In this document: positions 4,150 to 29,293 of the stretch, piece after piece
Position numbering within the stretch: the first letter of the stretch is position 1
Layout of the letters: each line of letters begins with the position of its first letter
Origin: an uncultured bacterium
Lineage (GTDB): Bacteria > Patescibacteriota > Patescibacteriia > UBA9570 > XYC2-FULL-38-9
Assembly (NCBI GenBank): GCA_937996685.1
Contig: CALKUP010000016.1
Span: 18,284 to 82,283, forward strand
Reading direction: 5' to 3'
DNA: 64,000 bases
Position numbers and translations under genes: made by a program
Notes under the pieces: model-generated
What the model saw: only the letters and a program-made list of their open reading frames with translations
What the model was told of the DNA's origin: nothing
Database searches by the model: none

Positions 4150-4427
4150 TTGGCTCTTGTTCGTATGATACGCACGAATCAGTAATTATTCAAGGAAAGA
4201 AGGGGATGTACCCCTTGACATTTTACTGTTTTTCCTGTACGTTGCCGCCCGCAAACGCCCTAAAAAATAGGGATGTTGGGATAGATAGCTGCAAGCACTG
4301 TTTTTACAAGATGACCGTTGCAATTTGTAAAAAGAGTGCTCGTGGATAGGCCATTCCTCGGGTTGCTGTGCATTTGTAAAAAAGCGCGTGGCATCAACAG
4401 GCTCATTAACATGATAGAGGTTCGCCA

Positions 4428-5810
4428 ATGCGAAGCATTCTCAAATTGTTCGCGGTGGTCGCCGCTCTGGCCTTCGCGCTCGCCTGCAATGGCGGGAGCA
4501 CGAAGGACAGCGCTTTCGACACGTCGGTCGACACCGACACGCCTTACGTGGACGATGATGCTGATCAGTGGTCACCTGATCAAGGCGACTGCGATGACAG
4601 CAACGCGGCCATCAACCCCGCTTCTGATGAGGTGCGGGGCGACGGCATCGACAACGATTGTGATGGTGCTGACTTGCGCCTGAGCTACTCTGATCCGACC
4701 ACGTACGGCGGGTACAACGGCTGGCTGGTCGAGTCCGCGGCTGGTACCGCCTTTAGCTGCTTCGCCAATGTCACGGCGGGCGTCGGCGGCGTCGTGCGGT
4801 GCTTGCCGCTTGAAGACAGCGCCAACGTGTTGGATCCGAGCGATGCGGCGGTCACCTTCACCGGTGATGTCGACATGACGCTTGGAACCGGAGGCTCCGT
4901 CTTCTCGGATCAGTACTTCTGTCTCGGTGGAAGTGAATTCAACGCCGAGAGGGGTGTCATGGGTTGCTGGGGTCTTGGAATCCTGGATGTTCCGGGTGAC
5001 TACACCTTCGACGACGCGGTCTTCACCATCTCCGGTGTGAATCCCGGGGATTATGTTGACCGCCACTGGTGGGCGGACGTCACCGGAGACAACCGCATCG
5101 ACCTCGTCGTCAGCGGCGGCGCCCGCTACTGGGTCTTCGCAGACCTGATGTCCCTTTCTGGGGGTCTCACGCTCGACGACGCGGTCTTCTCGGTAGACAT
5201 CTGCCCGCAGGGAGGCTGCACCATCTTCGTGGGCGAGGAGGCTGCGTTTGCTTTTCCCGCGAATGCGCCGACCATGGTCTTCTCCGATTACCAGCAGGAG
5301 ACGGCGCCAACCGGCCAGGGCGTGCTCTACGCTATGGACCTTCCGCTCACCCCCGCTTCTCAGCCGGTTGAGATCGATCGCGCTCGGCCGGGTCATGTTC
5401 TTGGTTTTCGTGTCGCTACCCTCGAATTCGGGTCCGTGTATTACGTTACGACCGGCACCGGCTTCCGGGAGTACCTGTACGACGGCGCCTCCTGGACGGT
5501 TGAGGAACATGACCTTGGGTTCTCAACCTTGATTCCATACGACGTTGGCATGGACTGGTTCAGGTGCGAATCGGGCATGGCGCTGGCTGTTACCGAGGTT
5601 GAGTCTGGGCAAGGGCTCATCTTCCAAAATGGAGCCGTTCAGGCGACCATCCTCTTGGAGGTTGGCTGTGGCACGGTCGTGTACGGCGAAGAAAACGGTT
5701 CTCATATCCTGACGATGTGTCAGGATCTGGGTGATCGGAACCAGGGACGCGCGCCCTCCGGTGACGGCGGGAACGTGTACCAAGTGGAAACCTTGCATTC
5801 GCCTCTCTAG
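4428..5810 (+). CDS. GC-rich putative lipoprotein with MopE-like Cys/Asp metal-binding motif and FG-GAP/VCBS-like region
   Basis: Lipoprotein signal (LAFALAC). DQGDCDDSNAAINPASDEVRGDGIDNDCDGADL resembles the 'putative metal-binding motif' of MopE-type proteins. HWWADVTGDNRIDLVVSG is FG-GAP-like. Local GC is far above the flanks. Confidence 0.5.
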   Translation: MRSILKLFAVVAALAFALACNGGSTKDSAFDTSVDTDTPYVDDDADQWSPDQGDCDDSNAAINPASDEVRGDGIDNDCDGADLRLSYSDPTTYGGYNGWLVESAAGTAFSCFANVTAGVGGVVRCLPLEDSANVLDPSDAAVTFTGDVDMTLGTGGSVFSDQYFCLGGSEFNAERGVMGCWGLGILDVPGDYTFDDAVFTISGVNPGDYVDRHWWADVTGDNRIDLVVSGGARYWVFADLMSLSGGLTLDDAVFSVDICPQGGCTIFVGEEAAFAFPANAPTMVFSDYQQETAPTGQGVLYAMDLPLTPASQPVEIDRARPGHVLGFRVATLEFGSVYYVTTGTGFREYLYDGASWTVEEHDLGFSTLIPYDVGMDWFRCESGMALAVTEVESGQGLIFQNGAVQATILLEVGCGTVVYGEENGSHILTMCQDLGDRNQGRAPSGDGGNVYQVETLHSPL

Positions 5811-8808: not shown

Positions 8809-9786
8809 TTATTCCGCTTGCCGAGTTTTAATATTCCATTTTTTTACAACGCCCGCACGATGTTTTGTTGAGCATTCTTCGCTGCATGCACCGTTGCTAT
8901 CTTCAGCGCACGTATCACATAAAATCACCATTTTGTTACATTCTGCGTTTGAGCAGTTGTAATAGGTGTCACAGGCAGTGTCACAAAAGTCACAAGTGGA
9001 AATAATTGTGTGATGTTCGTCATCATTGAGTTGGACTTGGGTGCGATCATCAAATACATACAAACTGCCTTCCCATAAACCATCTGGAATTTCCGCAGTG
9101 TAATTCACAATGCCGTCTTGGAGTGAATAGACCTCTTCCGCTTCTTTGAGTGAGTCAACGTAGATCGATGATTTTTCACAACGAATATTTCCATTGCAAT
9201 ACATCAAGACTTTTTTGCCGCGGACCACGTCTTTGTGCTGATCCATCCATTCTGGAAAATCACGGAAGTGGTCAATATCTGGTGTGATCGCATTTTTGAA
9301 TCGACCAATGCGCGCTTCAAAGTTGTTTCGGGCATCGAGAATAACGACGTTATCTTCTTGCATCATGTCGTGAAATTCTTTCGGGCTCAGTTTTTGTGGG
9401 ACGATTGTTTCGTCATATTCTTTGGCTTTTCCAGATGCGACAATTTCTGAACGGACTTTGACGCGAATGCCAGGGAACGGATTTTTGTGATAATACTCTT
9501 TTTTGAAAAAAATATCAGAAAAGCGTGGGTCAGCATGCATGGTGCGGATATATTCTTCTGTGTCTGCATCCAGTCCAGCCAGGGTTCCGTTGATTCCTTC
9601 TGCACTAATCAGGGTTCGGCCCTTCAAATTGAGTTGCGCCATGAGTGTCTTTTGGGAGTCACGCAGCGCTTCAGGATCGGCAATATCGGTGTATTTATAA
9701 AACAACAGAATGGTGTATGGTCGGTCGGGTGTTTGGATGTCAGCTTTCATAGAAATAGAGTGTACTATGACTTGACATTTTGTCAA
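8809..9786 (-). CDS. UPF0176/TrhO-like rhodanese-domain protein (tRNA U34 hydroxylase family) with Cys-rich C-terminal extension
   Basis: N-terminal ILLFYKY...LKGRTLISAEGINGTL. Rhodanese core ...VLMYCNGNIRCEKSS. C-terminal tail with ~12 Cys (CDFCDTACDTYYNCSNAECNKMVILCDTCAEDSNGACSEECS). Alternative start MKADIQ at 9750. Confidence 0.65.
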   Translation of the reverse strand: MTKCQVIVHSISMKADIQTPDRPYTILLFYKYTDIADPEALRDSQKTLMAQLNLKGRTLISAEGINGTLAGLDADTEEYIRTMHADPRFSDIFFKKEYYHKNPFPGIRVKVRSEIVASGKAKEYDETIVPQKLSPKEFHDMMQEDNVVILDARNNFEARIGRFKNAITPDIDHFRDFPEWMDQHKDVVRGKKVLMYCNGNIRCEKSSIYVDSLKEAEEVYSLQDGIVNYTAEIPDGLWEGSLYVFDDRTQVQLNDDEHHTIISTCDFCDTACDTYYNCSNAECNKMVILCDTCAEDSNGACSEECSTKHRAGVVKKWNIKTRQAE

Positions 9787-9866
9787 AAATCAGCTACAGA
9801 AGCGATAGCTCACACCATGCACAGGCAATGATTGCTTGTTGTTTCCGTGGGTGTTCTGAGGATTTA

Positions 9867-10682
9867 ATGTCTGCTCCCTTCGTTGTCATCGAGGGTGCTC
9901 GGGTTACCCGTCAGCCGCAGTGGCTCGGGCTCATGGACGGGGCGTTGCTTCGTATCGGTGAGGAGGTTCACTTGGACGGGAATCGGCATACCGTCCCGAT
10001 CATCGGGCTGTCTGGACCCGAGGCCCGTGTTGGGCTTGATGCCGCCCATGTCACGTTCAGTCACTCCGGGCGATACGTCGCTTGGAGTGTGGGCATGACC
10101 TTGTTGGTCTTTGACCGAAATACCGGCGCGACTTTTGAAGTTCCGCTGTCTACGACGGAACGAAGCGTCACTGTACATGGGGTCAAGTGGATCGGTGAAA
10201 GCGAGATTCATGTGGACTGCACAGGATCGTGCGGACACCGGTGTCAGCAGTACCTTTTCTACAAGGGCCTGTCGTATAAAACATCCGCGCTTCCAGAAGC
10301 GGTTAAGCCGCTGGTGCTGGACGACCGGACTTCGCATGAGTTTCAGCAGACGACGCATGCGGCATTTAGTGCAAGGCTGAATGCCTTTGACGCTCGAACG
10401 GGGCTGATGGCCGCGGTCATCAAACCGGGCGAGTTGACTGTCTGGGACCTTGAGCGGTGGATCCGGCATCAGCTCGGAACCAACTTCAGCACCTACCAGT
10501 TGGGAGGTCTGGAGATGACCACCCCCAACTCGCACATCATCCACTCCCTTGAGTGGCTTCCGGGTAAGGTGCTCAGGGTCGCGGTCGCGCGGGTTGAGAG
10601 CAACCCGAATCCCGCGTTCGACGTGAGCTGCGTCTATAGCAACGGCGTATGGCACGCTGAGTTGTTGGAGCTTCGGTTCTAA
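9867..10682 (+). CDS. hypothetical protein (GC-rich island)
   Basis: In-frame ATG at 9867 with a GAGGA SD. Plus-strand composition is protein-like (W/F/Y/H-rich). The overlapping minus-strand ORF is the Arg-rich antisense. No recognisable domain. Confidence 0.45.
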   Translation: MSAPFVVIEGARVTRQPQWLGLMDGALLRIGEEVHLDGNRHTVPIIGLSGPEARVGLDAAHVTFSHSGRYVAWSVGMTLLVFDRNTGATFEVPLSTTERSVTVHGVKWIGESEIHVDCTGSCGHRCQQYLFYKGLSYKTSALPEAVKPLVLDDRTSHEFQQTTHAAFSARLNAFDARTGLMAAVIKPGELTVWDLERWIRHQLGTNFSTYQLGGLEMTTPNSHIIHSLEWLPGKVLRVAVARVESNPNPAFDVSCVYSNGVWHAELLELRF

Positions 10683-10932
10683 CAATAGGTGATGCCATGA
10701 CGTCTCCTGCTGACTCGCGTTTCCGAGCGAAACAGCAGACAACCACCACAACCGCGGACCAGAAACAGCAACAACTCGCAACTCGCGACGCTGCTTTCCT
10801 TGGTCCGCACGTTTTCAGAGCGCAGAATCAAAGCATTCTGCATTGTGAAAACTCACTACATCAAAACGCTCGCTACCATCACTGTTTTGTTGTATCCTTA
10901 TCGTATTAAAGGTAAGTCATAATAGAACAAAT

Positions 10933-14510: not shown

Positions 14511-14619
14511 ATTCACTTCTTCCGTCTTTTTGCTGAATTTGCTATAGTATAAATAATACTATTTCCGCAAACATGTGCGAGATTTGCTCGTAATACGTTT
14601 GATTATTTTTATCATCACT

Positions 14620-17600
14620 ATGGGAAGAACAACAAAAGAAGGGCGTAGAGAAAAGGTGTCAGAACCAGAAGATCAAAGACTGGCTCGCTTGGAAAGACGG
14701 CGTGTAGTAGACAAAGCAAGGCGTGAGAAAGAGAAAGCTGCTAAAGCAGCGTCCTTAGAATCAAATACAGGGACAGTGGCTGAGACTCCGACTTCAGACC
14801 TTGTTATTTCTGCCGAGGTCCCTGAAGCTACTGAGCTGATAACGAGTCCTGCTGCTACTCCTTTAGGGCCTACTCCAGCAGACCCACAACCAGTAGCGCC
14901 AGTCGAGCCTCCTGAAAAGACTGATTCTAAAACAGGTTCAGGTAAAGGAAGGCGAGATGATGATCCTCGTGATCGAAATTTGCGAAAGTCAGAGCGATCT
15001 GAAGCCGTTGATTATTCAAAGCCAAAAAATAATCTTGGTCGGGTGTTATCTTTTTCCACGGTCATTCTTGATGAACCCACTAATACAGTGCTTGTTCCAG
15101 TTGCGGTAGAGGGAGCGGAAGTGATTGAAGTACAAATTATTTATCCAGAGTTTGATAAGTTTGATGTTAAAAATCATGCTGATGCACCATATCTTGGTCA
15201 GCAGAAGATTCGTATTGTTGGTGTTACAGAAGCGGCAGAATCAAAAGATGGAAAAGTGCATTATCGGGCTATTTTAGAGAAGTGGCGAGAGAATTTTGTT
15301 GCAGAGCAAGCGCGTGTAGAAGAAGAAAATGATCAATATCTTCCAGGTGATCGTATTCACAATGTGTCGCTGGTTCTGAATCCTTCAAGAAGAGCGCCAA
15401 GTCGGTTTTTTGTTGAGCGTGAACGCAATGACAAAAAAGAGCGATTGTATATTCAAGCTGGAGCGTCAAGTATTCCGGATCCTGCCGATCCTACAGCTCT
15501 GAGCGGTCAATATGATATTGAGGTTTTGTCTTGTGCTGGTACAAAAATTGAACAAGACGGTGTTCCTGTTACGCTGTATCAAGCAATGATTGTTGAAAAA
15601 ACTGACCCGACAAGCATTGAGACTAAATATGACGCTGAGACTCTGAAGCGAGAATTGCACACTAAAAAAGATGCCGATCGTGTAGATCAGATTAGAAAAT
15701 TGCCACGTAAAAAAAGTGATTTCCCCGCACCAGATAGAATTATCGCTGATAATAACATTTATTTTACTGTCAATATAGGCTCAAAAGACGATGAATTGAA
15801 TGGGTACTTTATCCATGAAGGAAATAACAAATTTCTCGCAGTGCGATCTTTGTTGAATCTTTTGGACTCTCAATCTGGGCAACGGTTGGAATTTTTTCCA
15901 TCAGCAGAAGTCGCTGTGCTTGGTGAGTTAGGGAAGAAAAGAGAAGGTCGGCCTGTTTTTGAAGGAGTATTTCAGCACGATGTTGAATTCATTGGATATG
16001 TCAGGTCTTATGAAGAGATACTTCGAAGTCATGAAGGTATCTTGCGTTACATTGATACACTGACACTTGATGAAGTGCCTGGCGATGCTCAAAAAACGCT
16101 CATACGCTCTATTCAAAAAAAGCGATCAAACATGATGCGTATTGTGTCTGAAATGGGCAAAGGGATGCGCGGTTCAAGAGTATTGCGAGAGTTTTTAGAC
16201 GATTTTCGCTCTAACAGTGTGGAGTTGAATATTGCTTTGAGTACTGCCGAGCAACAATTTGGCTCGAAAATCAACACGGTAGAACAAGCTGAGCACCATG
16301 AAGATGATCTGTTTTTATTTGAGTTGGGCGCGTATGAACGTCGTCACCCAAGTCCGTCTATTGAAGTGATGCATCAGCGTCGTTTGGATTTGTACAAACA
16401 ATTAATTGATAATGAAGTTCAACGGAAGCCTGGAACGCGTCTTGCGTATCAAGCATTACAAGCTGAAATTGCGCAACGTAATCATGAAAGTGACATGGGG
16501 CGACATGGACGGATTCGAGGCTTGCTTGCTTGGGCAAAAGCATATGCTGAGCGTTTTCCAAGAATGTTTGATGCTCAACCTGCAAGTGTTGATGCTGAAG
16601 CTGAGAAACCAGTAGCTGCTGCCGTGTCAAAAGCTGAGGCTGACAATTCAGCAGGCGTTGTTGAGGCACCGAAGGTCGAGGTTACTGCTCCAGCCCCAGG
16701 ACCTGCTCTCGCAGGAAGTGCAGTAGAAGCAGCGGAAGCAGTGTCGCCGCCTACCGTTGAAAAAGTAGAGACTCCAGCAACACCTACAGCACAAGCGTTG
16801 TTTACTGAAAAAGATTTTGACCCGGCAATTGATAACGGCTTTGAAGATGGAACAACCATTTTGGTCCAGATTCCAGGCTTTGGATATGAGCTTGACGGAC
16901 AAATGGTTCGTCCAGATTATTTGGTGATTACTTATTTTGACGACGCTTCAGGACAAATGCAAGCAACGCCGTATTTCAACGGAGTGCCAGCAGATCGGCC
17001 AATCGCATTTACGTATAGTAGTCTAGAAGCGTTTAGTCAGATTCGCGCTGTAACAGAAGCAGAAGTGCTGACTGTGAAAACAGTCGTGCCTGAGCCTGAG
17101 GCAGCGCCAGCTCCAGTTGCTGTGGAAGCTCCTTCGGTAGATTCCTTTGAGAGTGATGCATCTTTCGTTGCTCCAGAAGTAAAAGAGCGGTTACAAGATC
17201 AAATTAAAGAGCTTGCCGCACGATTATCACGTCTCGGTGTTTCGGTAACTGAGGATATATTGCTGCAAAGTGCGATACTGCGGAGATCTCCTTCTCTCGA
17301 AGGCGGTGATCATGTTTCATGTCGAATAACCTTTGATTCGCCACGCAATATCCCATTACCTGAAGCGCTTAAAGTTAAAGACGAATCTAATAGTGACATT
17401 TATGAGGGTCCGGTATTTATCAATTCCTTGGTGATGTATAATATAGATAACGTAAAAAGTATTGATGCATGGATTATTGGGTTGTCAGATGCAAATGGTG
17501 AACAGCGTGTAATGAGTGTGTCAATTGTTGAATTAGAAAAATTAATCAACGCTAAACAGTTGCCGGCAGAATATGATGCAAGTGGATTGCGGCTTGTTGA

Positions 17601-18684
17601 TTCAACTAGCAGAATTGCAACCGCATCTGAAGCTGATCGGAATGCTAAAAATTTTTGGGGTGATGATGATTCTTCAGAATCAGGTTGGTCAACAGCAGCT
17701 GATGCTGCAGAAGCGCCTGTTGATGTTAATGAGTCAGAAGTTTCAGAAGACAAAAAAGCTGAACTGCGAGCTAAAATGGAAGAGGTCTTTCAAAGACTTA
17801 AGGCCCTTGGCGTTGTTGTTGGTGATGTACAGTCTCTATTAGAAAACGCAATTTTTAGGACAAGTGGTGTGTATTCAGGTGGATATATCTATTTACATTC
17901 TCTGGGTAATCAAAATTTACAAATTAGCCTTCCGAGGGCTATTGAGCGACAAGCAGATGCATCTGCTGCCCACCGCTTTGAAGGTGTGCTGACTATTAAT
18001 AGCTTGTTTCTAGGGTCTGGGGAAGATGTTGCTGACTGTGAGATGCAGCTGGATTCAGATCAGTCATCGTGGGAATTTCGTCTTTCTGAATTAGAAGATT
18101 TGATTACTAATGGAAATATTTCAGAATCTCTAGAAAGGTGGGGTTTTCGCTTTGTTGAGTCAGATAGTGCTGCGCCTGCGGAAGTAGCGGCACCAGTAAA
18201 AACCGAAGCACCGAAAAAGCCGGACGCAGTAGCAGCGGTTCCATCGCTTGAATCTATTTTGCCGGCTGGAAAGACAATTGATCGGTATGTCGCTGAGCTG
18301 CGACCGCGTGCTGCTGAAATAAAGAAAATGATTACAGATACTCTTGGCATGTGGCAAATGATCAGATTAGCTGGACGAACAGGTGAATTACAAGCGCTTG
18401 TTCCAGAATTAACTGAATTACTTGATCGAGTGACGGTGGCAAAAAAAGCAATTCGTGATAAACGAAAAAGAACGGATTCAGATCCTGAGATTATTACAGC
18501 TCATACGGCTGAATTACAATTTGTTCAAGAGTTGTCACAGCTTTTTTCAGATCAAGGAATTCGTGGAATTGCAGCAAGTGCAGATACGGTTAACAATTTT
18601 ATTGATAAAAAGTTGCCTGTATTGAAGGGTAAGGCAAAGAAAATAGTAGAATCATACGATGCTATTACCCGCACCATGAAGTAA
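14620..18684 (+). CDS. giant (1355 aa) hypothetical cytoplasmic protein with P/A/E-rich linkers and an internal ~140-aa tandem duplication
   Basis: ATG at 14620 (MGRTTKEGRREK...). The track ORF starts at 14575. No signal peptide, basic N-terminus. Low-complexity linkers (PTPADPQPVAPVEPPE, APAPVAVEAPS, AAPAEVAAPVKTEAPKKP). Repeat 1 ~nt 17176-17600 and repeat 2 ~17749-18170 align (RL..LGV.V.....LL..AI.R.S ... EG...INSL...). Confidence 0.6.
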   Translation: MGRTTKEGRREKVSEPEDQRLARLERRRVVDKARREKEKAAKAASLESNTGTVAETPTSDLVISAEVPEATELITSPAATPLGPTPADPQPVAPVEPPEKTDSKTGSGKGRRDDDPRDRNLRKSERSEAVDYSKPKNNLGRVLSFSTVILDEPTNTVLVPVAVEGAEVIEVQIIYPEFDKFDVKNHADAPYLGQQKIRIVGVTEAAESKDGKVHYRAILEKWRENFVAEQARVEEENDQYLPGDRIHNVSLVLNPSRRAPSRFFVERERNDKKERLYIQAGASSIPDPADPTALSGQYDIEVLSCAGTKIEQDGVPVTLYQAMIVEKTDPTSIETKYDAETLKRELHTKKDADRVDQIRKLPRKKSDFPAPDRIIADNNIYFTVNIGSKDDELNGYFIHEGNNKFLAVRSLLNLLDSQSGQRLEFFPSAEVAVLGELGKKREGRPVFEGVFQHDVEFIGYVRSYEEILRSHEGILRYIDTLTLDEVPGDAQKTLIRSIQKKRSNMMRIVSEMGKGMRGSRVLREFLDDFRSNSVELNIALSTAEQQFGSKINTVEQAEHHEDDLFLFELGAYERRHPSPSIEVMHQRRLDLYKQLIDNEVQRKPGTRLAYQALQAEIAQRNHESDMGRHGRIRGLLAWAKAYAERFPRMFDAQPASVDAEAEKPVAAAVSKAEADNSAGVVEAPKVEVTAPAPGPALAGSAVEAAEAVSPPTVEKVETPATPTAQALFTEKDFDPAIDNGFEDGTTILVQIPGFGYELDGQMVRPDYLVITYFDDASGQMQATPYFNGVPADRPIAFTYSSLEAFSQIRAVTEAEVLTVKTVVPEPEAAPAPVAVEAPSVDSFESDASFVAPEVKERLQDQIKELAARLSRLGVSVTEDILLQSAILRRSPSLEGGDHVSCRITFDSPRNIPLPEALKVKDESNSDIYEGPVFINSLVMYNIDNVKSIDAWIIGLSDANGEQRVMSVSIVELEKLINAKQLPAEYDASGLRLVDSTSRIATASEADRNAKNFWGDDDSSESGWSTAADAAEAPVDVNESEVSEDKKAELRAKMEEVFQRLKALGVVVGDVQSLLENAIFRTSGVYSGGYIYLHSLGNQNLQISLPRAIERQADASAAHRFEGVLTINSLFLGSGEDVADCEMQLDSDQSSWEFRLSELEDLITNGNISESLERWGFRFVESDSAAPAEVAAPVKTEAPKKPDAVAAVPSLESILPAGKTIDRYVAELRPRAAEIKKMITDTLGMWQMIRLAGRTGELQALVPELTELLDRVTVAKKAIRDKRKRTDSDPEIITAHTAELQFVQELSQLFSDQGIRGIAASADTVNNFIDKKLPVLKGKAKKIVESYDAITRTMK

Positions 18685-20011: not shown

Positions 20012-20402
20012 TGGTGGAAATGACGGGACTCACACCCGTGTCTCGCTCGTGAAACATATATCATCTCCATGCTCAGATCGTTTGGTAATTTCGATAATGA
20101 AAACAAAAACGAACAAATGGTTCAGTATCTATCTTTGAGAAATGTCCATTACGCGCCAAAGAATCACGGAATGTAAGTCGCGGTTAAAGTGATACCGCAG
20201 GCAGTCGTAGCGACGTCAGACTGCGGCGATAGTTGCAGAATTTAGGCTGCAACAGGAGCCAATTCAAAAGACGCAAGCTTTGCAGCGGCAGTCTTCAAAC
20301 GGCTAGTGAAGTTTGCACTTCGAATAGTGAGATGTTTTACGAGAACCTCAACTCGACATGCAGATATATGTTGTCAATGAACGGTCAACGATAAACATCC
20401 CC
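20012..20402 (-). ncRNA. ssrA: tmRNA (SsrA), 391 nt
   Basis: Minus-strand RNA. 5-prime GGGGAUG pairs with 3-prime CAUUUCC-A-CCA (G3:U70 wobble as in tRNA-Ala). T-arm ACGGG-UGUGAGU-CCCGU. Internal tag frame GCA AAC UUC ... GCU CCU GUU GCA GCC UAA encodes ...FELAPVAA*. Sits immediately downstream of smpB. Confidence 0.8.
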
Positions 20403-20452: not shown

Positions 20453-20893
20453 TTATGATTGTTTCATTAAGCGAGCAAGATCTCGTTTAACGTCTCTTTG
20501 TTTGATTTTTTCACGTTTGTCGTGTTTTTTAAGACCCTTTGCGAGCTGCAACCGAACCTTAATCAAACCGGACTTACTATACACAATTTCAGGGACAATT
20601 GTCAACCCTTTTTCTTGTAATTTCCCAATAATTCGCTTGATTTCAGATTTGCGAAGCAAGAGCTTGCGGTCGTGCTCTGGAGTGTAGCCGACTTGGTTCT
20701 TGATTTGGTAGGCAGCAATGTGTGAATTGACTAGCCAAATCTCGTTATCACGCAGACTGACATAGGTTCCTTTGAGGTTCATGCGGCCATTTTTGACGGA
20801 TTTCACTTCAGCGCCAGATAGCACAATACCAGCTTCAAAAGCTTCGAGAAATTCGTAATTGTGACGTGCGTCTTTATTAATAATCCGTTCCAT
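20453..20893 (-). CDS. smpB: SsrA-binding protein SmpB
   Basis: MERIINKDARHNYEFLEAFEAGIVLSGAEVKSVKNGRMNLKGTYV... Confidence 0.9.
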   Translation of the reverse strand: MERIINKDARHNYEFLEAFEAGIVLSGAEVKSVKNGRMNLKGTYVSLRDNEIWLVNSHIAAYQIKNQVGYTPEHDRKLLLRKSEIKRIIGKLQEKGLTIVPEIVYSKSGLIKVRLQLAKGLKKHDKREKIKQRDVKRDLARLMKQS

Positions 20894-21158
20894 TGTGGCA
20901 GTATACGCGAGAGAGTGCGAAAAATCAACGATTTTCTGTTTATTTTCATGAATCTCTTTTTTGGCGGTATATCCATTGACAAAACAGGTGAAAAAGTGTT
21001 AGGTTCTTTTGATTTGCAATCAAGCAAATTGTTCGTTTTATTTATAGAGCAGGTGTATTTCTGTGGGCGCGCTGTGTGGCTGATTATGAAGTGATTCAGC
21101 AATAGAGCGCACTCACAGAAGCACGAATAACCGTGTGGTGACATGCAAGGAGGTATGC

Positions 21159-21641
21159 ATGTATCTTCGGCTTTGGAATTGCGAGAACCCCTTCGGACTC
21201 TCTTTTACGGACCTGTGCGTCCGTCTCGCCGAGAGAGACGATCCATACACGCTGTCGCTCACTGATCCCTCCGGTGCCGTCGTCAGGCTCAATGAGCGAC
21301 AGCTCAGGGATGGGCGGCCCTTCACCTTCTGCGAAGAAGGGGTCGGAATGACCCTGAGCCTCCTCTCTCATGAGGTGGGTCTTGGTTATTTTGATTTGAG
21401 CACGAGTGAGGATCAGCCGCTCCTGCCGGATCAGATCGCGCGAATTGCCGCACGTTGGTACATTGATGGAGTGGATGAATTGATTCTTCAGGTCGAGTCG
21501 AGCAAGGACCAGTCGCGAATCAGCTCCAAAGAAAGGAAAGAGGTGATCGACGCCTTTATCCGGCTCTGGTCAAGTGATCGCCGTCTTCCTCTGCTTGCCA
21601 TCGACGGCGAGGACGTGAATTGGGAACTCGTCACGCGGTAG
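21159..21641 (+). CDS. hypothetical protein (GC-rich island), paralog of 21878..22450
   Basis: ATG at 21159 with an AAGGAGG SD. C-terminal ...KERKEVIDAFIRLWSSDRRLP resembles ...EKRRAIVRAFIELWPQLARGKP in the next gene. Confidence 0.5.
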   Translation: MYLRLWNCENPFGLSFTDLCVRLAERDDPYTLSLTDPSGAVVRLNERQLRDGRPFTFCEEGVGMTLSLLSHEVGLGYFDLSTSEDQPLLPDQIARIAARWYIDGVDELILQVESSKDQSRISSKERKEVIDAFIRLWSSDRRLPLLAIDGEDVNWELVTR

Positions 21642-21877
21642 TTTTTATTGTGCGGGCTACTTAAAACATAGCCCGCACCAGAACTACCGCAGCACCTGCT
21701 CATTTTTTCTCAGTAAATCTCACGCAGATTTTTTGAGAAAAGATTGAATTATATTCGATCTGTTCATTTTTAATTTAGAGCAGACACGCTTTGTGGGTGA
21801 GATTTTGCATTGATGTGTATTATATTGATGCTGGATTTCACTCACAGAGCACGTTCGTCGTGCAAAGGAGAGATGCG

Positions 21878-22450
21878 ATGTTTGTTTACATCGGTCACGC
21901 CATCACTTGGGCTCAATTGTGTCGTCGATACCGCAGTCCGCATGGTGGAGACCCGTACGGTCTTCATCTTCCTGTTGATCGATTGGATTGGAAGCTGACT
22001 CGTAAGCAGCGGTCGAGCGTCGTAGACGGCATCTACGTGGTGAGTGAGCATCAGGCTCGAACCTGGGCAGAGTTCACCATCAACGATGGCGCAGGAGGTT
22101 TGTTCTTCAGTTGTGAGGAGAGCGCAGGAGGCTTTTTCGAGCTTGTTGGTTCTGACGACCGGCAAGGGGCTAAGGATGGCGCTGAGTTCACTCCTGAGTT
22201 TATTGTCGGGGTTTGCGCGGATTTCACGGAGATCGGTGGTCCTGCGCTTGAGGTCGACGTTGAAGACTTCTACGGCCATTCGCCTGACGATGAAGATTGG
22301 ACTTTCAAAGACGATCCTGAGAAGCGCCGCGCGATCGTGCGCGCCTTCATCGAGCTGTGGCCGCAGCTCGCTCGGGGCAAGCCCATGCCCAAGCTCAAGA
22401 TCTGCGGGAAGCGGATCCGCTACGGCGCGTACCCTAAGCACCCCTGGTAG
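21878..22450 (+). CDS. hypothetical protein (GC-rich island), paralog of 21159..21641
   Basis: ATG at 21878 preceded by AAAGGAGAGA. Acidic and W/F/Y-containing, protein-like. The antisense ORF 21842..22510 is judged spurious. Confidence 0.5.
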   Translation: MFVYIGHAITWAQLCRRYRSPHGGDPYGLHLPVDRLDWKLTRKQRSSVVDGIYVVSEHQARTWAEFTINDGAGGLFFSCEESAGGFFELVGSDDRQGAKDGAEFTPEFIVGVCADFTEIGGPALEVDVEDFYGHSPDDEDWTFKDDPEKRRAIVRAFIELWPQLARGKPMPKLKICGKRIRYGAYPKHPW

Positions 22451-22653
22451 CGTTCCTTCGGACGAATGAACGATTGACGAACTTTGAGGACTTGCGCAAC
22501 GCACCCTCAAAACCGTCAGTGCCTGCTCATCGTCTCTGAGTACGTCTCATGTAGATGTGTTGAGAGACGATTACAATGAAAAATAAAGAACTTACTAGAG
22601 TTTCGTGGTCTTTTTTGGTATACTCGAAAGAGTTATTATTGATTGATTTTATT

Positions 22654-25849: not shown

Positions 25850-25876
25850 GTAAGATTTACCCCCGTAAGTATTGAT

Positions 25877-25917
25877 AAAATAGCCTCTGTATGTTATAAT
25901 GCGAGGCTATTTTTTAT
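25877..25917 (+). terminator. intrinsic terminator after trxB
   Basis: aaaaTAGCCTCtgtatgttataatgcGAGGCTAtttttt. Confidence 0.55.
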
Positions 25918-26011
25918 TGAAAAAATAGTTGATCTTTGTCAAAAAATGGGCATCAAAAGCCCGTTCAGAGAAGCAAAAAAAATCCAACCCTTGAATAAAG
26001 AGAGGTTTGCC

Positions 26012-27292
26012 ATGAGCAAATTCGTTTTCGTGCCCCACGAGTCGACCGAGGCTGCTCCCCGGGTGATTCCCGAGGGTTGCTCGCCCGCTTTGGCGCGGTC
26101 GGTTGCTGTCATGAATGAGCTGAGTCTCCAAAGCATCACCTCGCAGGCGCGATTTACGGCCGCCGGTGCTGAGGTCGGCAAAATCCAGATCCGAGCGGTC
26201 TGGGTGCTGGTCGCCGTAACGGTGGTCAGCACACTCATGTCTGCGGGTGCTGGCGGGCTTGGTATTCACCTTCAGGCGGAAGGTTTGGAGTCAGCGTTTT
26301 CGTTTCTCGCGCCGAGCGCTTGCGGCGCAGCGCTCTCGGCGCTGCTCTGGCACCGTGCGGAGCACCGGGCGAAGGCTTTGGGTGCGCCAGAGCTCGGAGA
26401 GCAGTGGCGCAACTATTGCGCCGCGCGGGAGGCGCTGCGCAAAGCGATTTTTCTGTACCGAGCCGGAGTGATTGATGCACGAAGACTGAGCATGGTTTTG
26501 CGGCAAGTGTGCCTACAGGTTTGGGCGGCATCCCCACCTACCGACGAGGAGCTCTTCGCTCGTTGGCAAAGCGAGCAAGACCGATACCTCTTCGAGGATG
26601 GTGACGATGGGTTTTCGAAATTGGAGCTGGATCATTACGTCCAGCTCCGGACTGAAGGCCAGAAAGTCTGGATGGACGGAAGGCTAAAAGGCAAGCTCGC
26701 GAAGCTGCGTGAGGTGCACATCGCCCGTTTGCGCCAGATTCAGCTCTGGCAGGCGAGTGTCCGGTGGCTGCCATTTATTGGCGAAGCGGTTAGTGCACTC
26801 ATTGGTCGCCTGAGTTTGATTGAGGATCAGCGCTATGAGTGGCTGGCGGTCGAGAAGACCATTGCCGGCTACACTGAGGTCATCGAACAGATGGCCACGC
26901 CGCTGACTGCCTACCAAGAGTTTCTCATGCACTGTGCGGAAGCGCTGTGTGAGAAACTTGCAGAAGGCGATGCTGACAAGGCTCTGTATATTCACGGGAC
27001 CCTTGAGGGATTCGTCGGCCTGCCTCAGTTGACGCGTAAGATTGCTGAAGCGTTTGTTGCAGAGCGTTTCCCTGGCTCAGAGGAAGCGTTTACTGCCTGG
27101 AAGGAAGCGGAGCGTAAGTTCCTCCCCGAGCTGGCAAAGGTCACCGAGAACATTCTCGGTGCCGAGCACGCCGATTGGCTGCGCTTTCGCGTTACCGCAA
27201 CCAATAGCCTCGAGCAAGCGCTTTCGAGTATCTTCCTCCGCGGCGTCGCGGAAGGTGCTCCAAGCGGCGAAGGCGCAGAAGTCCCCGCATAG
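26012..27292 (+). CDS. hypothetical protein (GC-rich island)
   Basis: ATG at 26012 with an AGAGAGG SD. 426 aa and helical. The 3-prime end (…GEGAEVPA*) lies inside the first copy of a 133-bp repeat. Confidence 0.5.
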   Translation: MSKFVFVPHESTEAAPRVIPEGCSPALARSVAVMNELSLQSITSQARFTAAGAEVGKIQIRAVWVLVAVTVVSTLMSAGAGGLGIHLQAEGLESAFSFLAPSACGAALSALLWHRAEHRAKALGAPELGEQWRNYCAAREALRKAIFLYRAGVIDARRLSMVLRQVCLQVWAASPPTDEELFARWQSEQDRYLFEDGDDGFSKLELDHYVQLRTEGQKVWMDGRLKGKLAKLREVHIARLRQIQLWQASVRWLPFIGEAVSALIGRLSLIEDQRYEWLAVEKTIAGYTEVIEQMATPLTAYQEFLMHCAEALCEKLAEGDADKALYIHGTLEGFVGLPQLTRKIAEAFVAERFPGSEEAFTAWKEAERKFLPELAKVTENILGAEHADWLRFRVTATNSLEQALSSIFLRGVAEGAPSGEGAEVPA

Positions 27293-27399
27293 ATACGCAG
27301 GGCGATTCGCTGGAGATACCAGTTCTTCAGCGAATGACAACCGCCAGTTCCCGTCGACGCAGGTCAACGGAGAATTTCGGCGGTTTTTTCTTATAGAAA
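27266..27399 (+). repeat. direct repeat copy 1 (~133 bp) containing inverted repeat + hairpin/T-tract terminator
   Basis: ggcgaaggcgcagaagtcccCgcAtag...gcgattcgctggaga...cagcgaatgacaaccgccagttcccgtcgacgcaggtcaacggAgaatttcggcggttttttcttatagaaa. About 90% identical to 28296..28428. Confidence 0.8.
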
Positions 27400-27679
27400 A
27401 GAAGGAGGGATACATCTTGACAAATGAGGTTTATATACGTATGGTATTGAGTCTATTTTCTCTATAGAAAATAGCTGGTCTTTGAACCAAATAGTGAGCG
27501 TTTTAGTATCGTTTGCAGTACACAGTCAAGGAATCAAACATCTTCGTTATCAAGAAGGTTGTTGATTCTCTATTGTGTGCTGTGAACGATCGCGTGAGTC
27601 TAACCCGAAAATCACTTCAGGTACGACACACTCGAGCTTGCTCAGCATCACTGCGGTTTGTCCGCATGTGGAAGTACTC

Positions 27680-28276
27680 ATGGCTCGCTCTAATAGAAAT
27701 TCCCAGGCATTGGATACCTTGCTCACCGCCCTCCGCAATGCCGGAGGTGAAGTGCTTAAGGAGGAGCGGTTGTTGCATCTGCTCTGTGATCCTGCAATAG
27801 CCAGTAGGTTGGCGCAGGACTTGGTGTGTACGCACCTGCAGCGTCAGAAATCCCTCCCTCGGGTGGAGGACCTGGTCATCAGCAACACGATCATTACGGT
27901 CTACTACCGGGCTGATGGTTCCGAAGAAGGTCATTACGACCACCTCTTTCCCTTTCAGTACTTCCCTAAGAAGGTGCGTGTTCGTTGGGTAGAACTGCCT
28001 TACGGATTTGGAGCTACTACGTCCGATGTTGCAAATCATCTCCGTGCAAGAGGACTTGATGCCCCCGTTGACGTGGCGGTGGTGAAGGCCCTTCTTCTTC
28101 ATGTGAAACGAATGAACTTTATGGTCTTGTTGCGAGACAAGGCCTATATCTGGGATCCGAGCGTTCCGAACAAGGTGGTGAGCCGGTTCAATCGAGACAC
28201 TGAGCTGAATCAGGAAGCGCTCAATGGGTCCGCGACCTTCATTGGCATCGTCGATGTCGAGGTGCTCGACAAATAG
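27680..28276 (+). CDS. hypothetical protein (GC-rich island)
   Basis: In-frame ATG at 27680 (MARSNRNSQALDTLLTALRNAGG...). No recognisable domain. Bracketed by the two repeat copies. Confidence 0.45.
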   Translation: MARSNRNSQALDTLLTALRNAGGEVLKEERLLHLLCDPAIASRLAQDLVCTHLQRQKSLPRVEDLVISNTIITVYYRADGSEEGHYDHLFPFQYFPKKVRVRWVELPYGFGATTSDVANHLRARGLDAPVDVAVVKALLLHVKRMNFMVLLRDKAYIWDPSVPNKVVSRFNRDTELNQEALNGSATFIGIVDVEVLDK

Positions 28277-28295
28277 CCCTCGGTGTTCCTCAGGC

Positions 28296-28428
28296 GGCGA
28301 AGGCGCAGAAGTCCCTGCGTAGACAGCGGGGCGATTCGCTGGAGACACTAGCTCTTTAGCGAATGACAACCGCCAGTTCCCGTCGACGCAGGTCAACGGG
28401 GAATTTCGGCGGTTTTTTCTTATAGAAA
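28296..28428 (+). repeat. direct repeat copy 2 (~133 bp) with hairpin/T-tract terminator
   Basis: Begins 20 nt after the stop of 27680..28276. The 3-prime half is near-identical to copy 1, including ...tttcggcggttttttcttatagaaa. Confidence 0.8.
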
Positions 28429-28465
28429 TTTTCTCTCAACAGAAAAATAGTGTAGAATACAGGGC

Positions 28466-29293
28466 ATGGATGAAGAAATCGTGTCACAAAACCCTGTCCC
28501 TGCAGAGCCGCTTGTTGCTCCAACACCTCCCCCAATTCCGGAGGAGTCATTTTGGTCTCGTTGGAAAGGGATTATTCTGTTAATCGCTGCGATGTGCGCA
28601 ATCGGCTTGTTTGGGTTGTTGATTTATCGAACCACAGTCTATGTGGGGAAAATTCAACGCGGCGAAGTGATTGATGTCAGTGCGTTCAGTAATAACACAA
28701 GTGCATCACAGTTGTCGGATACGGGTATTCAAAAAATTGAAACAGTGAATAATGAAGCGGTGAATAATTTTGCGGATGATCCGAGCATTGGCCCAGAAAA
28801 TGCAGCAGTCACGCTTGTGATGTTTGAAGATTTTGAGTGCCCGTATTGCGAGCAATTATTTCCAGTGATCGTTGCAGCGCGTAAGCAATATGCGAATGAT
28901 ATTCGCTTTGTGTACCGCGATTTTCCACTGACGGATATTCACCCAAATGCGCAGAAAGCAGCGGAGGCCGGAAATTGTGCGAATGCCCAAGGAGCGTTTT
29001 GGACATATCATGATCTGTTATTTCGAAATCAAGATAAGCTGACTGTTCCGGACTTAAAAAAATATGCTCAAACAACGGGATTGGATACAGAGAAATTCAA
29101 CACCTGTTTAGATTCTGGGGAATACGCAGATGAAGTGCAACAAGATTTTGAAGATGGTGTTCGAGCTGGTGTTTCTGGAACTCCGACACTCTTTTTCAAC
29201 GGCAATCCAGTCAAAGGCGCGATTACGCAAAGTGGCTTTGATCAAGTAATGTCGTTGCTATTGCAATCAACGAATCAATCCACAAATCAATAA
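28466..29293 (+). CDS. DsbA-like thiol:disulfide oxidoreductase, membrane-anchored
   Basis: TM anchor, then ...VTLVMFEDFECPYCEQLFPV... (CPYC active site). Confidence 0.7.
   Translation: MDEEIVSQNPVPAEPLVAPTPPPIPEESFWSRWKGIILLIAAMCAIGLFGLLIYRTTVYVGKIQRGEVIDVSAFSNNTSASQLSDTGIQKIETVNNEAVNNFADDPSIGPENAAVTLVMFEDFECPYCEQLFPVIVAARKQYANDIRFVYRDFPLTDIHPNAQKAAEAGNCANAQGAFWTYHDLLFRNQDKLTVPDLKKYAQTTGLDTEKFNTCLDSGEYADEVQQDFEDGVRAGVSGTPTLFFNGNPVKGAITQSGFDQVMSLLLQSTNQSTNQ

Follow-up and report, generated by a model that had tools for sequence, protein, structure and literature searches.

The locus described here raises the question of why two adjacent GC-rich orphan genes, the open reading frames (ORFs) of which are unrelated in both DNA and protein sequence, are followed by nearly the same ~140 nucleotides, and why the second copy of that repeat carries the end of the first gene out of frame. 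The locus lies in 64,000 nucleotides of contig CALKUP010000016.1 from an uncultured member of the Patescibacteriota, a stretch hereafter called the window, and comprises gene 1, the repeat unit U1, gene 2 and the repeat unit U2 in this order between trxB and a dsbA-like gene (Table). The repeat is probably the tail and terminator of gene 1, recopied behind an inserted gene 2, and would be the footprint of local recombination rather than a mobile element.

An earlier note on this DNA had described direct repeats of ~133 bp with ~90% identity bracketing two GC-rich genes. Repeats and base composition were both borne out. The gapped alignment of U1 with U2 over 139/140 nt contains 10 substitutions and one 1-nt indel, corresponding to ~92% identity (27261-27400 against 28291-28429), with exact common stretches of 22, 17, 42 and 28 nt, and both genes are richer in GC than their neighbours at ~0.44. 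The bracketing had to be revised, one copy following each gene so that only gene 2 is bracketed. A 30-mer of the unit had exactly two occurrences in the window, whereas shuffled sequences gave an expectation of 0. All 10 substitutions are transitions (4 A/G and 6 C/T) and are spread over both copies. The 5' half of the unit contains ten of the 11 differences (Fisher p = 0.009), a skew that a conversion tract or constraint on the terminator would produce. A diversity-generating retroelement was considered and rejected, the transitions in both copies showing no bias toward template adenines, and no reverse transcriptase for such an element was found among the scanned neighbours.

Each unit is predicted to fold into three separate hairpins, and its two ends do not pair. 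Both copies contain the features reported earlier, namely the inverted repeat ATTCGCTGGAGA...TCTTCAGCGAAT and a long GC hairpin with T-tract. Two smaller stem-loops precede a terminator with a GC-rich stem of ~20 pairs that is closed by CCGCC/GGCGG and followed by T6, and the folding energies are below those of shuffled controls (z-scores of -4.7 for U1 and -3.7 for U2). A 16-nt motif, TTTTYTYTATAGAAAA, related to the palindrome of the upstream repeat P described below, ends both units. Both terminator hairpins have the features of intrinsic terminators, a GC-rich stem-loop with a T-tract on the coding strand and 3' of a stop codon; each copy is simply predicted to terminate its own transcript, which it probably also stabilises. 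No match within the unit was obtained with Rfam. Substitutions in the stems preserve or improve pairing (G:C to G:U, C.A to U.G and C.A to C:G), with 98% of cells paired overall and one T:A to C:G double change between the window and two of the related contigs described below (L022 and L023). Covariation in hairpins 1 and 2, for which only four distinct sequences were available, was not significant, 165 of 500 shuffles reaching the observed score. The hairpin structure therefore appears conserved, with covariation that is anecdotal.

A hairpin-rich unit of ~140 nt and ~90% identity behind tandem orphan ORFs superficially resembles the attC arrays of chromosomal integrons, and some dispersed repeats also carry a terminator. 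The unit could on these grounds be a dispersed repeat resembling miniature inverted-repeat transposable elements (MITEs) or repetitive extragenic palindromic (REP) elements, or an attC-like integron site. The results are otherwise against it. A whole-window repeat search and blastn revealed no third copy in the window, and neither the other GC-rich islands nor other GC-rich genes in the window, a check suggested in the earlier note, end in the unit. Viral contigs and JGI metagenome contigs contained no exact 22-30-mers of the unit, and blastn found no copy in phage and plasmid records. The three separate hairpins differ from one long hairpin formed by pairing of the ends, and reading of the unit ends on either strand revealed no RYYYAAC/GTTRRRY core sites. 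The terminal inverted repeats of a MITE are likewise missing, as the unit ends are not complementary and the left end is coding sequence of gene 1, the first 30 nt being conserved in the orthologues. Furthermore, the cassettes have promoter-like sites of their own. Domain scanning of ~24 long ORFs of the window, which included all neighbours within about 6 kb and those of the other GC-rich islands, revealed no integrase, recombinase, transposase or reverse transcriptase. A dispersed repeat or attC-like site is largely refuted and was considered highly improbable, and the mobile gene-end cassette proposed in the earlier note is not supported, given the same absence of the unit from the rest of the window and from the viral, JGI metagenome, phage and plasmid sets.

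The origin of the repeat was indicated by relatives of gene 1. The product of gene 1 is predicted to be all-alpha with a strong hydrophobic segment at residues ~64-76; visual inspection suggests a second such stretch at ~95-113. No match was found in Pfam (E-values up to 10), NCBIfam, PADLOC, PHROGs or, by sequence, PDB, and AlphaFold (AF2) models of the products of gene 1 and gene 2 were of low confidence, with predicted local distance difference test (pLDDT) scores of 38-40. Searches of public genome contigs and metagenome contigs returned no relatives of gene 1. A viral match (L024) was discarded as a DnaB-like helicase sharing the peptide PELGEQW by chance. Related contigs recovered via gene 1 and via the downstream DsbA contained orthologues of 77-78% identity at the same locus (P0002/P0049 on L025, and L001), as well as the frameshifted P0003. 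The divergence of gene 1 between the window and L025 or L001 is about that of trxB (76-78% identity for both).

The orthologue P0002/P0049 of L025 ends in ...APSGEGAQVPA* and that of L023 in ...SDEGAQVPA*. In both contigs the stop codon lies in the loop of the same hairpin 1 and is followed by a shorter hairpin 2, a terminator and dsbA. Since the orthologues share the tail and the hairpins, the coding part and the hairpins of the unit belong natively to gene 1; judged from these sequences, the tail is shown to be native. The earlier observation that the first copy supplies the end of gene 1 was accurate, U1 contributing the last ~10 codons and the stop. U2 begins 15 nt past the stop codon of gene 2 and, as had also been seen, retains at 28296-28322 the codons GGC GAA GGC GCA GAA GTC CCT GCG TAG, out of frame with gene 2 and with two synonymous changes.

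The related contigs present the locus in several states. The site is empty in L002 and L021, in which the dsbA start follows the trxB stop after 38 nt, and in the more distant L026, in which trxB abuts dsbA. Gene 1 alone is present in the contig of P0002, in L025 (complete) and in L023 (right end), with the order trxB, promoter, gene 1, one unit and dsbA and a gap of 121 nt between gene 1 and dsbA. The repeat is single-copy and native in these relatives without the gene-2 segment (L025 and L023, and the P0002 contig by gene order), which is a feature of a recombination footprint. L001 contains a decaying gene-1 cassette (1440-2662) with a frameshifted ORF (286 aa called, the remainder in another frame), which in comparison with L025 has lost a promoter segment bounded by two GCTATTTTT direct repeats. 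In L022, assembled by Logan from SRR8640622, the stop codon of a gene-2 homologue directly precedes 66 nt of frameshifted gene-1 tail, behind which lie the unit and dsbA. The window represents the state with both genes in tandem.

The comparison of the window with L022 dates the junction behind gene 2. The copy in the window is without 13-20 nt of the gene-1 tail, the copy in L022 has a 2-nt insertion, and the stop of gene 2 abuts the tail at the corresponding place in both. The same abutment in two lineages points to a single junction of some age, not to a recent event or an accident of assembly. By its sequence U2 is a decaying, non-coding relic of the gene-1 tail. Together with the native tail in P0002/P0049 and L023, this relic upholds the earlier proposal of a recombination or duplication footprint. 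U1 and U2 nevertheless share a 13-nt expansion of hairpin 2 relative to the other contigs and a terminator sequence entirely different from that common to L022, L023 and L025, and each also carries derived changes of its own. These window-specific features imply that the common ancestor of U1 and U2 is younger than the split of the lineages, from which we infer that their similarity reflects gene conversion between the copies or a later re-duplication.

The same comparison bears on mis-assembly, about which the earlier note had expressed concern. The source contig was assembled from a metagenome, exact stretches of 42 and 28 nt are common to the two copies, and relatives exhibit loci with gene 1 only and possibly with gene 2 only; gene 1 and gene 2 could therefore be alternative alleles of co-existing strains that were concatenated through the shared unit. 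The 11 positions at which the copies differ show that nothing was collapsed. The sequence reached from U1 at 27401 is unique and unlike the end of trxB, such that a chimera would require the join to be present in reads, and the same proteins were recorded from NCBI, ENA and Logan assemblies. A Logan contig of 1059 nt has the length expected in a k = 31 graph between copies of the shared 42-mer, which is the distance 27341-28399 (or 27329-28387), and is in agreement with the tandem arrangement by virtue of its length only. The range of locus states in the related contigs makes an artefact unlikely, and its probability was judged to be very small. The concern was largely removed by the independent L022, which contains gene 2, relic, unit and dsbA; the part that stands is that the full tandem was seen in the source contig only.

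Gene 2 had only a self-match among 5.8e9 clustered proteins and 1.84e9 representatives scanned with HMMER. No family was matched in Pfam (E-values up to 10), NCBIfam, PADLOC, PHROGs or a PDB sequence search, and the same was true of an ORF antisense to it. A homologue of its C-terminus was found in L022, with 36% identity over 44 aa (E = 4e-5) and the same end point, the aligned C-termini being ...TFIGIVEVSQLDE* and ...TFIGIVDVEVLDK*. Derivation of gene 2 from gene 1 by divergence or frameshift was rejected, there being no similarity of DNA or protein beyond chance. The antisense ORF of 259 aa (27617-28396, - strand) overlaps gene 2 fully and starts inside the U2 terminator. The matching antisense frame is also open in L022, where it was the frame picked by the gene caller. 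Tests of codon position and codon usage on the two strands were near-neutral; the + strand was chosen on context, from which the antisense frame is probably a shadow ORF. A 233-aa form of gene 2 with a GTG start (P0050) is present on the 1059-nt Logan contig.

Homology between the two cassettes is not limited to their 3' ends. Upstream of gene 2 is a second version, P', of the repeat P found upstream of gene 1. Local alignment of P with P' extends over ~65 nt with ~72% identity (z = 7.7 versus shuffles), and the palindrome pattern CTATTTTYT-N4-ARAAAATAG occurs at only these two sites in the window. A change of T:A to C:G between P and P' leaves the palindrome symmetric, as read directly from the sequence. 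The gene-2 promoter has the same placement relative to the palindrome of P' as the gene-1 promoter has relative to that of P. The sequence of P (25888-25951) is identical in L001 and L025, and the orthologous promoter site of L025 is a perfect 12/12 match, TTGACA-17-TATAAT with TG. The stretch from U2 to dsbA was also examined for a further copy of P, as for repeats at the ends of an island; the alignment was messy and the copy is not claimed. The homologous flanks and the unrelated ORF bodies together indicate two tandem cassettes of promoter, ORF and terminator with different cargo.

Gene 2 also has a leader of its own. A hairpin in the leader folds with -42.1 kcal/mol on the + strand (z = -7.4) versus -26.0 kcal/mol on the - strand, and this far greater stability on the + strand argues for a strand-specific structure at the level of RNA. 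No Rfam family was matched above threshold, the sub-threshold matches being to generic hairpins only. An RNase III site, a regulatory leader and a small RNA are all conceivable.

These results suggest the following origin of the islet, which splits the otherwise contiguous pair trxB and dsbA and would consist of two tandem, self-contained cassettes, each comprising a promoter of the sigma-70 type, a palindrome of 22 nt at the predicted transcript start, a GC-rich orphan ORF and a structured 3' end with an intrinsic terminator. A duplicate or allelic version of the gene-1 cassette would have exchanged its ORF for gene 2, with both flanks retained as the promoter module P/P' (~72%) and the tail-plus-terminator module U1/U2 (92%). 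The presence of the relic behind gene 2 would follow from this exchange of the gene-1 body between retained flanks. Following the split of the lineages, U1 and U2 may have been homogenised by gene conversion or re-duplicated, and they may now serve as substrates for homologous deletion and re-insertion of gene 2.

Insertion of the Campbell type offers another route to the same arrangement, in which a circle with gene 2, its promoter and one gene-1 tail and terminator entered by a single, reversible crossover within the unit. It would account for direct repeats of native sequence that flank exactly the variable segment and for the single unit in relatives with gene 1 only; the circle might arise from excision between U1 and U2 in a donor, and the 8% divergence of the units would then be that of donor and recipient. 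Such an insertion leaves the second duplicated flank, P' with promoter and palindrome, unexplained, and it presupposes an earlier event that joined the gene-1 tail to gene 2. The junction of gene 2 with the relic, being common to the distant L022, is moreover older than a recent insertion in this lineage. The Campbell route was consequently regarded as rather unlikely.

A related possibility is a tiny non-autonomous integrative element consisting of gene 2 and its leader, mobilised in trans and targeted to the 3' end of gene 1, to which it would bring a replacement tail, with U1 and U2 as attL and attR. The repeat does span the 3' end of the target and restore the frame, the displaced copy decays, and the like junction in two distant lineages could mean recurrent targeting. 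Gene 1, gene 2 and those flanking ORFs that were scanned showed no integrase or recombinase domain; the sole ORF of the insert is without a recombinase domain in Pfam, NCBIfam, PHROGs and PADLOC. In addition, a sharp-edged identical core is missing, the identity decaying as a gradient, the homology of P' upstream is unexpected for such an element, and the phage, plasmid and viral collections yielded no matches. An integrative element is for these reasons improbable, and replacement of the gene-1 body in a duplicated or allelic cassette is preferred.

Evidence that the islet moves was obtained from the flanking core genes. The identity of dsbA-rpiB-rpe between the window and the other contigs is 67-69%. 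Between L022, in which the site is filled, and L002, in which it is empty, core-gene identity is 90%, and between L022 and L023 it is 80%. Within positions 1-650 of L022, the unit end and approximately the first 250 nt of dsbA are 90-95% identical to L023 and L025; beyond ~250 nt of dsbA the identity to L023 and L025 is ~78% and that to L002 ~90%. This switch within dsbA marks a recombination tract, indicating that the islet evidently reached the L022 lineage, or was exchanged there, through homologous recombination in its flanks. The islet probably moves in this manner, and it may pass between related lineages when DNA, probably acquired by uptake, undergoes homologous recombination within the core genes on either side. 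Genes for competence and recombination have been reported in Patescibacteria (PMC12455944), and by analogy DNA uptake with RecA-type recombination is a plausible vehicle. In a more far-reaching version, to which we give little credence, the P and U modules would be homology arms of a recombinase-independent cassette system at a trxB-dsbA hot spot. It is similarly doubtful that in such a system of small-genome bacteria unrelated GC-rich orphan ORFs would be swapped or stacked through homologous recombination of these arms, by an integron-like logic without integrase and with the unusually conserved 3' hairpins under selection as part of it.

Several results weigh against the replacement of gene 1 within a copied cassette. 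Gene 1 has a GC content of 0.59-0.61 in the window and in L025 and L001, the hosts of which are at ~0.45, and no amelioration is visible: the islet is ~15 GC points above its host across lineages that differ by ~22-30% in core genes. A simple history as an old resident does not explain this lasting excess. The L022 contig begins inside the gene-2 homologue, such that what lies upstream, gene 1 or not, falls outside the contig, and the complete tandem, gene 1 upstream of gene 2, is present in the source contig only. Several orders of events would be compatible with the arrangement, namely tandem duplication then cargo replacement, a replaced allele then its capture in tandem, or insertion by a single crossover. 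The likeness of P and P' is short and could partly be due to convergence of promoter or operator sequences. Lastly, the count of unit copies covers the 64-kb window, and further copies may be located elsewhere in the genome.

Table. Features of the islet between trxB and dsbA and of its right flank, with positions in the window.
Feature	Position	Strand	Description
Strain-variable GC-rich islet	25850-28452	+	Inserted after the trxB stop codon (25849) and before the native dsbA promoter region
Gene-1 promoter, sigma-70-like	25872-25900	+	TTGATA-17-TATAAT, TG before the -10; 11/12 consensus positions
Upstream repeat P, copy 1	25888-25951	+	22-nt palindrome CTATTTTTT-ATTG-AAAAAATAG at 25907-25928, predicted 5' end of transcript
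Gene 1	26012-27292	+	426-aa orphan, GC 0.59 (GC at third codon positions, GC3, 0.66)
Unit U1	27261-27400	+	Gene-1 tail and stop, hairpin 1, hairpin 2, terminator with T-tract, palindromic TTTCTTATAGAAA
U1, gene-1 tail	Last ~10 codons; stop codon 27290-27292	+	PSGEGAEVPA; completes the gene at 26012-27292
U1, hairpin 1	27283-27302	+	Loop holds the stop codon
U1, hairpin 2	27305-27335	+	
U1, terminator hairpin	27341-27383; T-tract 27384-27389	+	-25 kcal/mol
Gene-2 promoter, sigma-70-like	27417-27445	+	TTGACA-17-TATGGT; 10/12 consensus positions
Upstream repeat P', copy 2	27438-27499	+	Palindrome CTATTTTCT-CTAT-AGAAAATAG at 27453-27474
Gene-2 leader hairpin	27506-27593	+	35 base pairs, 7 of them G.U; leader of ~230 nt
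Gene 2	27680-28276	+	198-aa orphan, GC 0.53
Unit U2	28291-28429	+	Gene-1-tail relic, hairpin 1, hairpin 2, terminator with T-tract
U2, relic of gene-1 tail	28294-28322	+	Non-coding
U2, hairpin 1	28313-28331	+	
U2, hairpin 2	28334-28364	+	
U2, terminator hairpin	28370-28412; T-tract 28413-28418	+	-26 kcal/mol
Native dsbA upstream region	28436-28465	+	Right of the islet; TCAACA...TGTAGAATA, -10-like TAGAAT at 28453-28458

The order of genes around the islet, all on the + strand, is dsbA-like, mauE/doxX, trxB, islet, dsbA-like, rpiB, rpe and a split transketolase. The GC content of the islet interior is 0.55-0.64 against ~0.43 outside, with ~0.43-0.45 for the neighbouring genes as compared with 0.59 and ~0.53 for gene 1 and gene 2, and GC3 is 0.61-0.66 in gene 1 and gene 2 against ~0.40 in the neighbours. 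On the right side of the islet, the native dsbA upstream region aligns with L022, L023 and L025 as well as with L002 and L021, in which the site is empty; a promoter-like TTGTCT-18-TAGAAT was scored in L025. The TAGAAT is only 7 nt before the dsbA ATG, and this is conserved in the window (28453-28466), L002, L021, L022, L023 and L025. As no space is left for a ribosome-binding site between TAGAAT and ATG, the dsbA mRNA may be leaderless.

No tRNA genes were found in the window, and the sole Rfam match was a transfer-messenger RNA (tmRNA) at 20012-20402. This tmRNA gene (- strand, 86 bits) adjoins smpB (20453-20893, - strand), and a GC-rich island at 21135-22510 is located a few hundred bases beyond smpB. 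It is one of three further GC-rich islands (0.55-0.62) in the window, the others being at 4318-5810 and 9780-10782. Their sequences are unrelated to gene 1, gene 2, P and U, and their ORFs are without Pfam families except for one MopE-like motif. Weak paralogy links the ORFs at 21135-21641 and 21791-22450, and the latter has a 32%-identical homologue in L002 at the same position upstream of an aldolase gene. A 1369-aa ORF at 14575-18684 (+ strand) had no Pfam match at E <= 0.001.

The locus is a clean and datable example of a streamlined genome gaining an orphan gene. The newcomer would re-use an existing promoter module and an existing tail-and-terminator module and so arrive as a ready-made transcription unit, and the duplicated modules would ease its loss and regain by homologous recombination. 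All intermediate states are documented in natural populations, together with a recombination tract that crosses lineages. For annotation, the string encoding GEGAEVPA-TAG behind gene 2 is to be treated as a relic and not as a coding feature.

Comparison with known systems places the islet among several of them. The U1 and U2 terminators do not differ from ordinary Rho-independent terminators with stem-loops in the 3' untranslated region except in being duplicated. Integron gene cassettes are promoterless, reside beside an intI integrase gene with attI and Pc, and carry attC sites, which also occur in clusters without integrase; an attC site is a single imperfect hairpin formed by pairing of its ends (R''-L'' with L'-R') and contains RYYYAAC and GTTRRRY cores. 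The islet resembles such arrays in its tandem orphan ORFs, each followed by a hairpin-rich element of ~130 nt. It differs in that the unit has neither the architecture nor the core sites of attC and includes native coding sequence, and in that its cassettes, present as two copies only and with no integrase found, carry promoters and terminators.

Further parallels are elements that duplicate the 3' end of the gene into which they insert, among them phage 21 and e14 at icd and islands at tRNA and tmRNA genes. As in phage 21 and e14, the repeat is the 3' end of the target, the proximal copy completing the gene and the distal copy remaining as a non-functional relic with silent differences. In contrast to these elements, the insert is a single ORF of 198 aa with no integrase found in the scanned ORFs, there is no sharp identical core, and extra homology is present on the other side of the insert.

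Flexible genomic islands are known in additive and replacement forms. Small variable segments flanked by direct repeats have been described (Touzain et al. 2010, PMC2884548). The islet, too, is short, varies between strains and occupies a constant place between conserved core genes, with repeats that allow deletion and flanks that allow exchange by homologous recombination. Its repeat is, by comparison, long (~140 nt) and a functional module of gene tail and terminator, and a promoter and palindrome module is also duplicated, such that whole expression cassettes are stacked. Tandem duplications triggered by transformation produce merodiploids with intact and cassette-replaced copies (Johnston et al. 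2013, PMC3784515). The pneumococcal merodiploids span 100-900 kb with borders at insertion sequence fragments, whereas the islet unit is ~1.4 kb; the structure of the islet appears old, its junction being common to L022, and transformation is invoked here by analogy. Likeness to the merodiploids lies in an intact copy beside a cargo-replaced copy, with flanks shared in direct orientation and border repeats that make the structure unstable. The trxB-dsbA locus thus adds one more case to a familiar class of events, well resolved through its natural intermediates.

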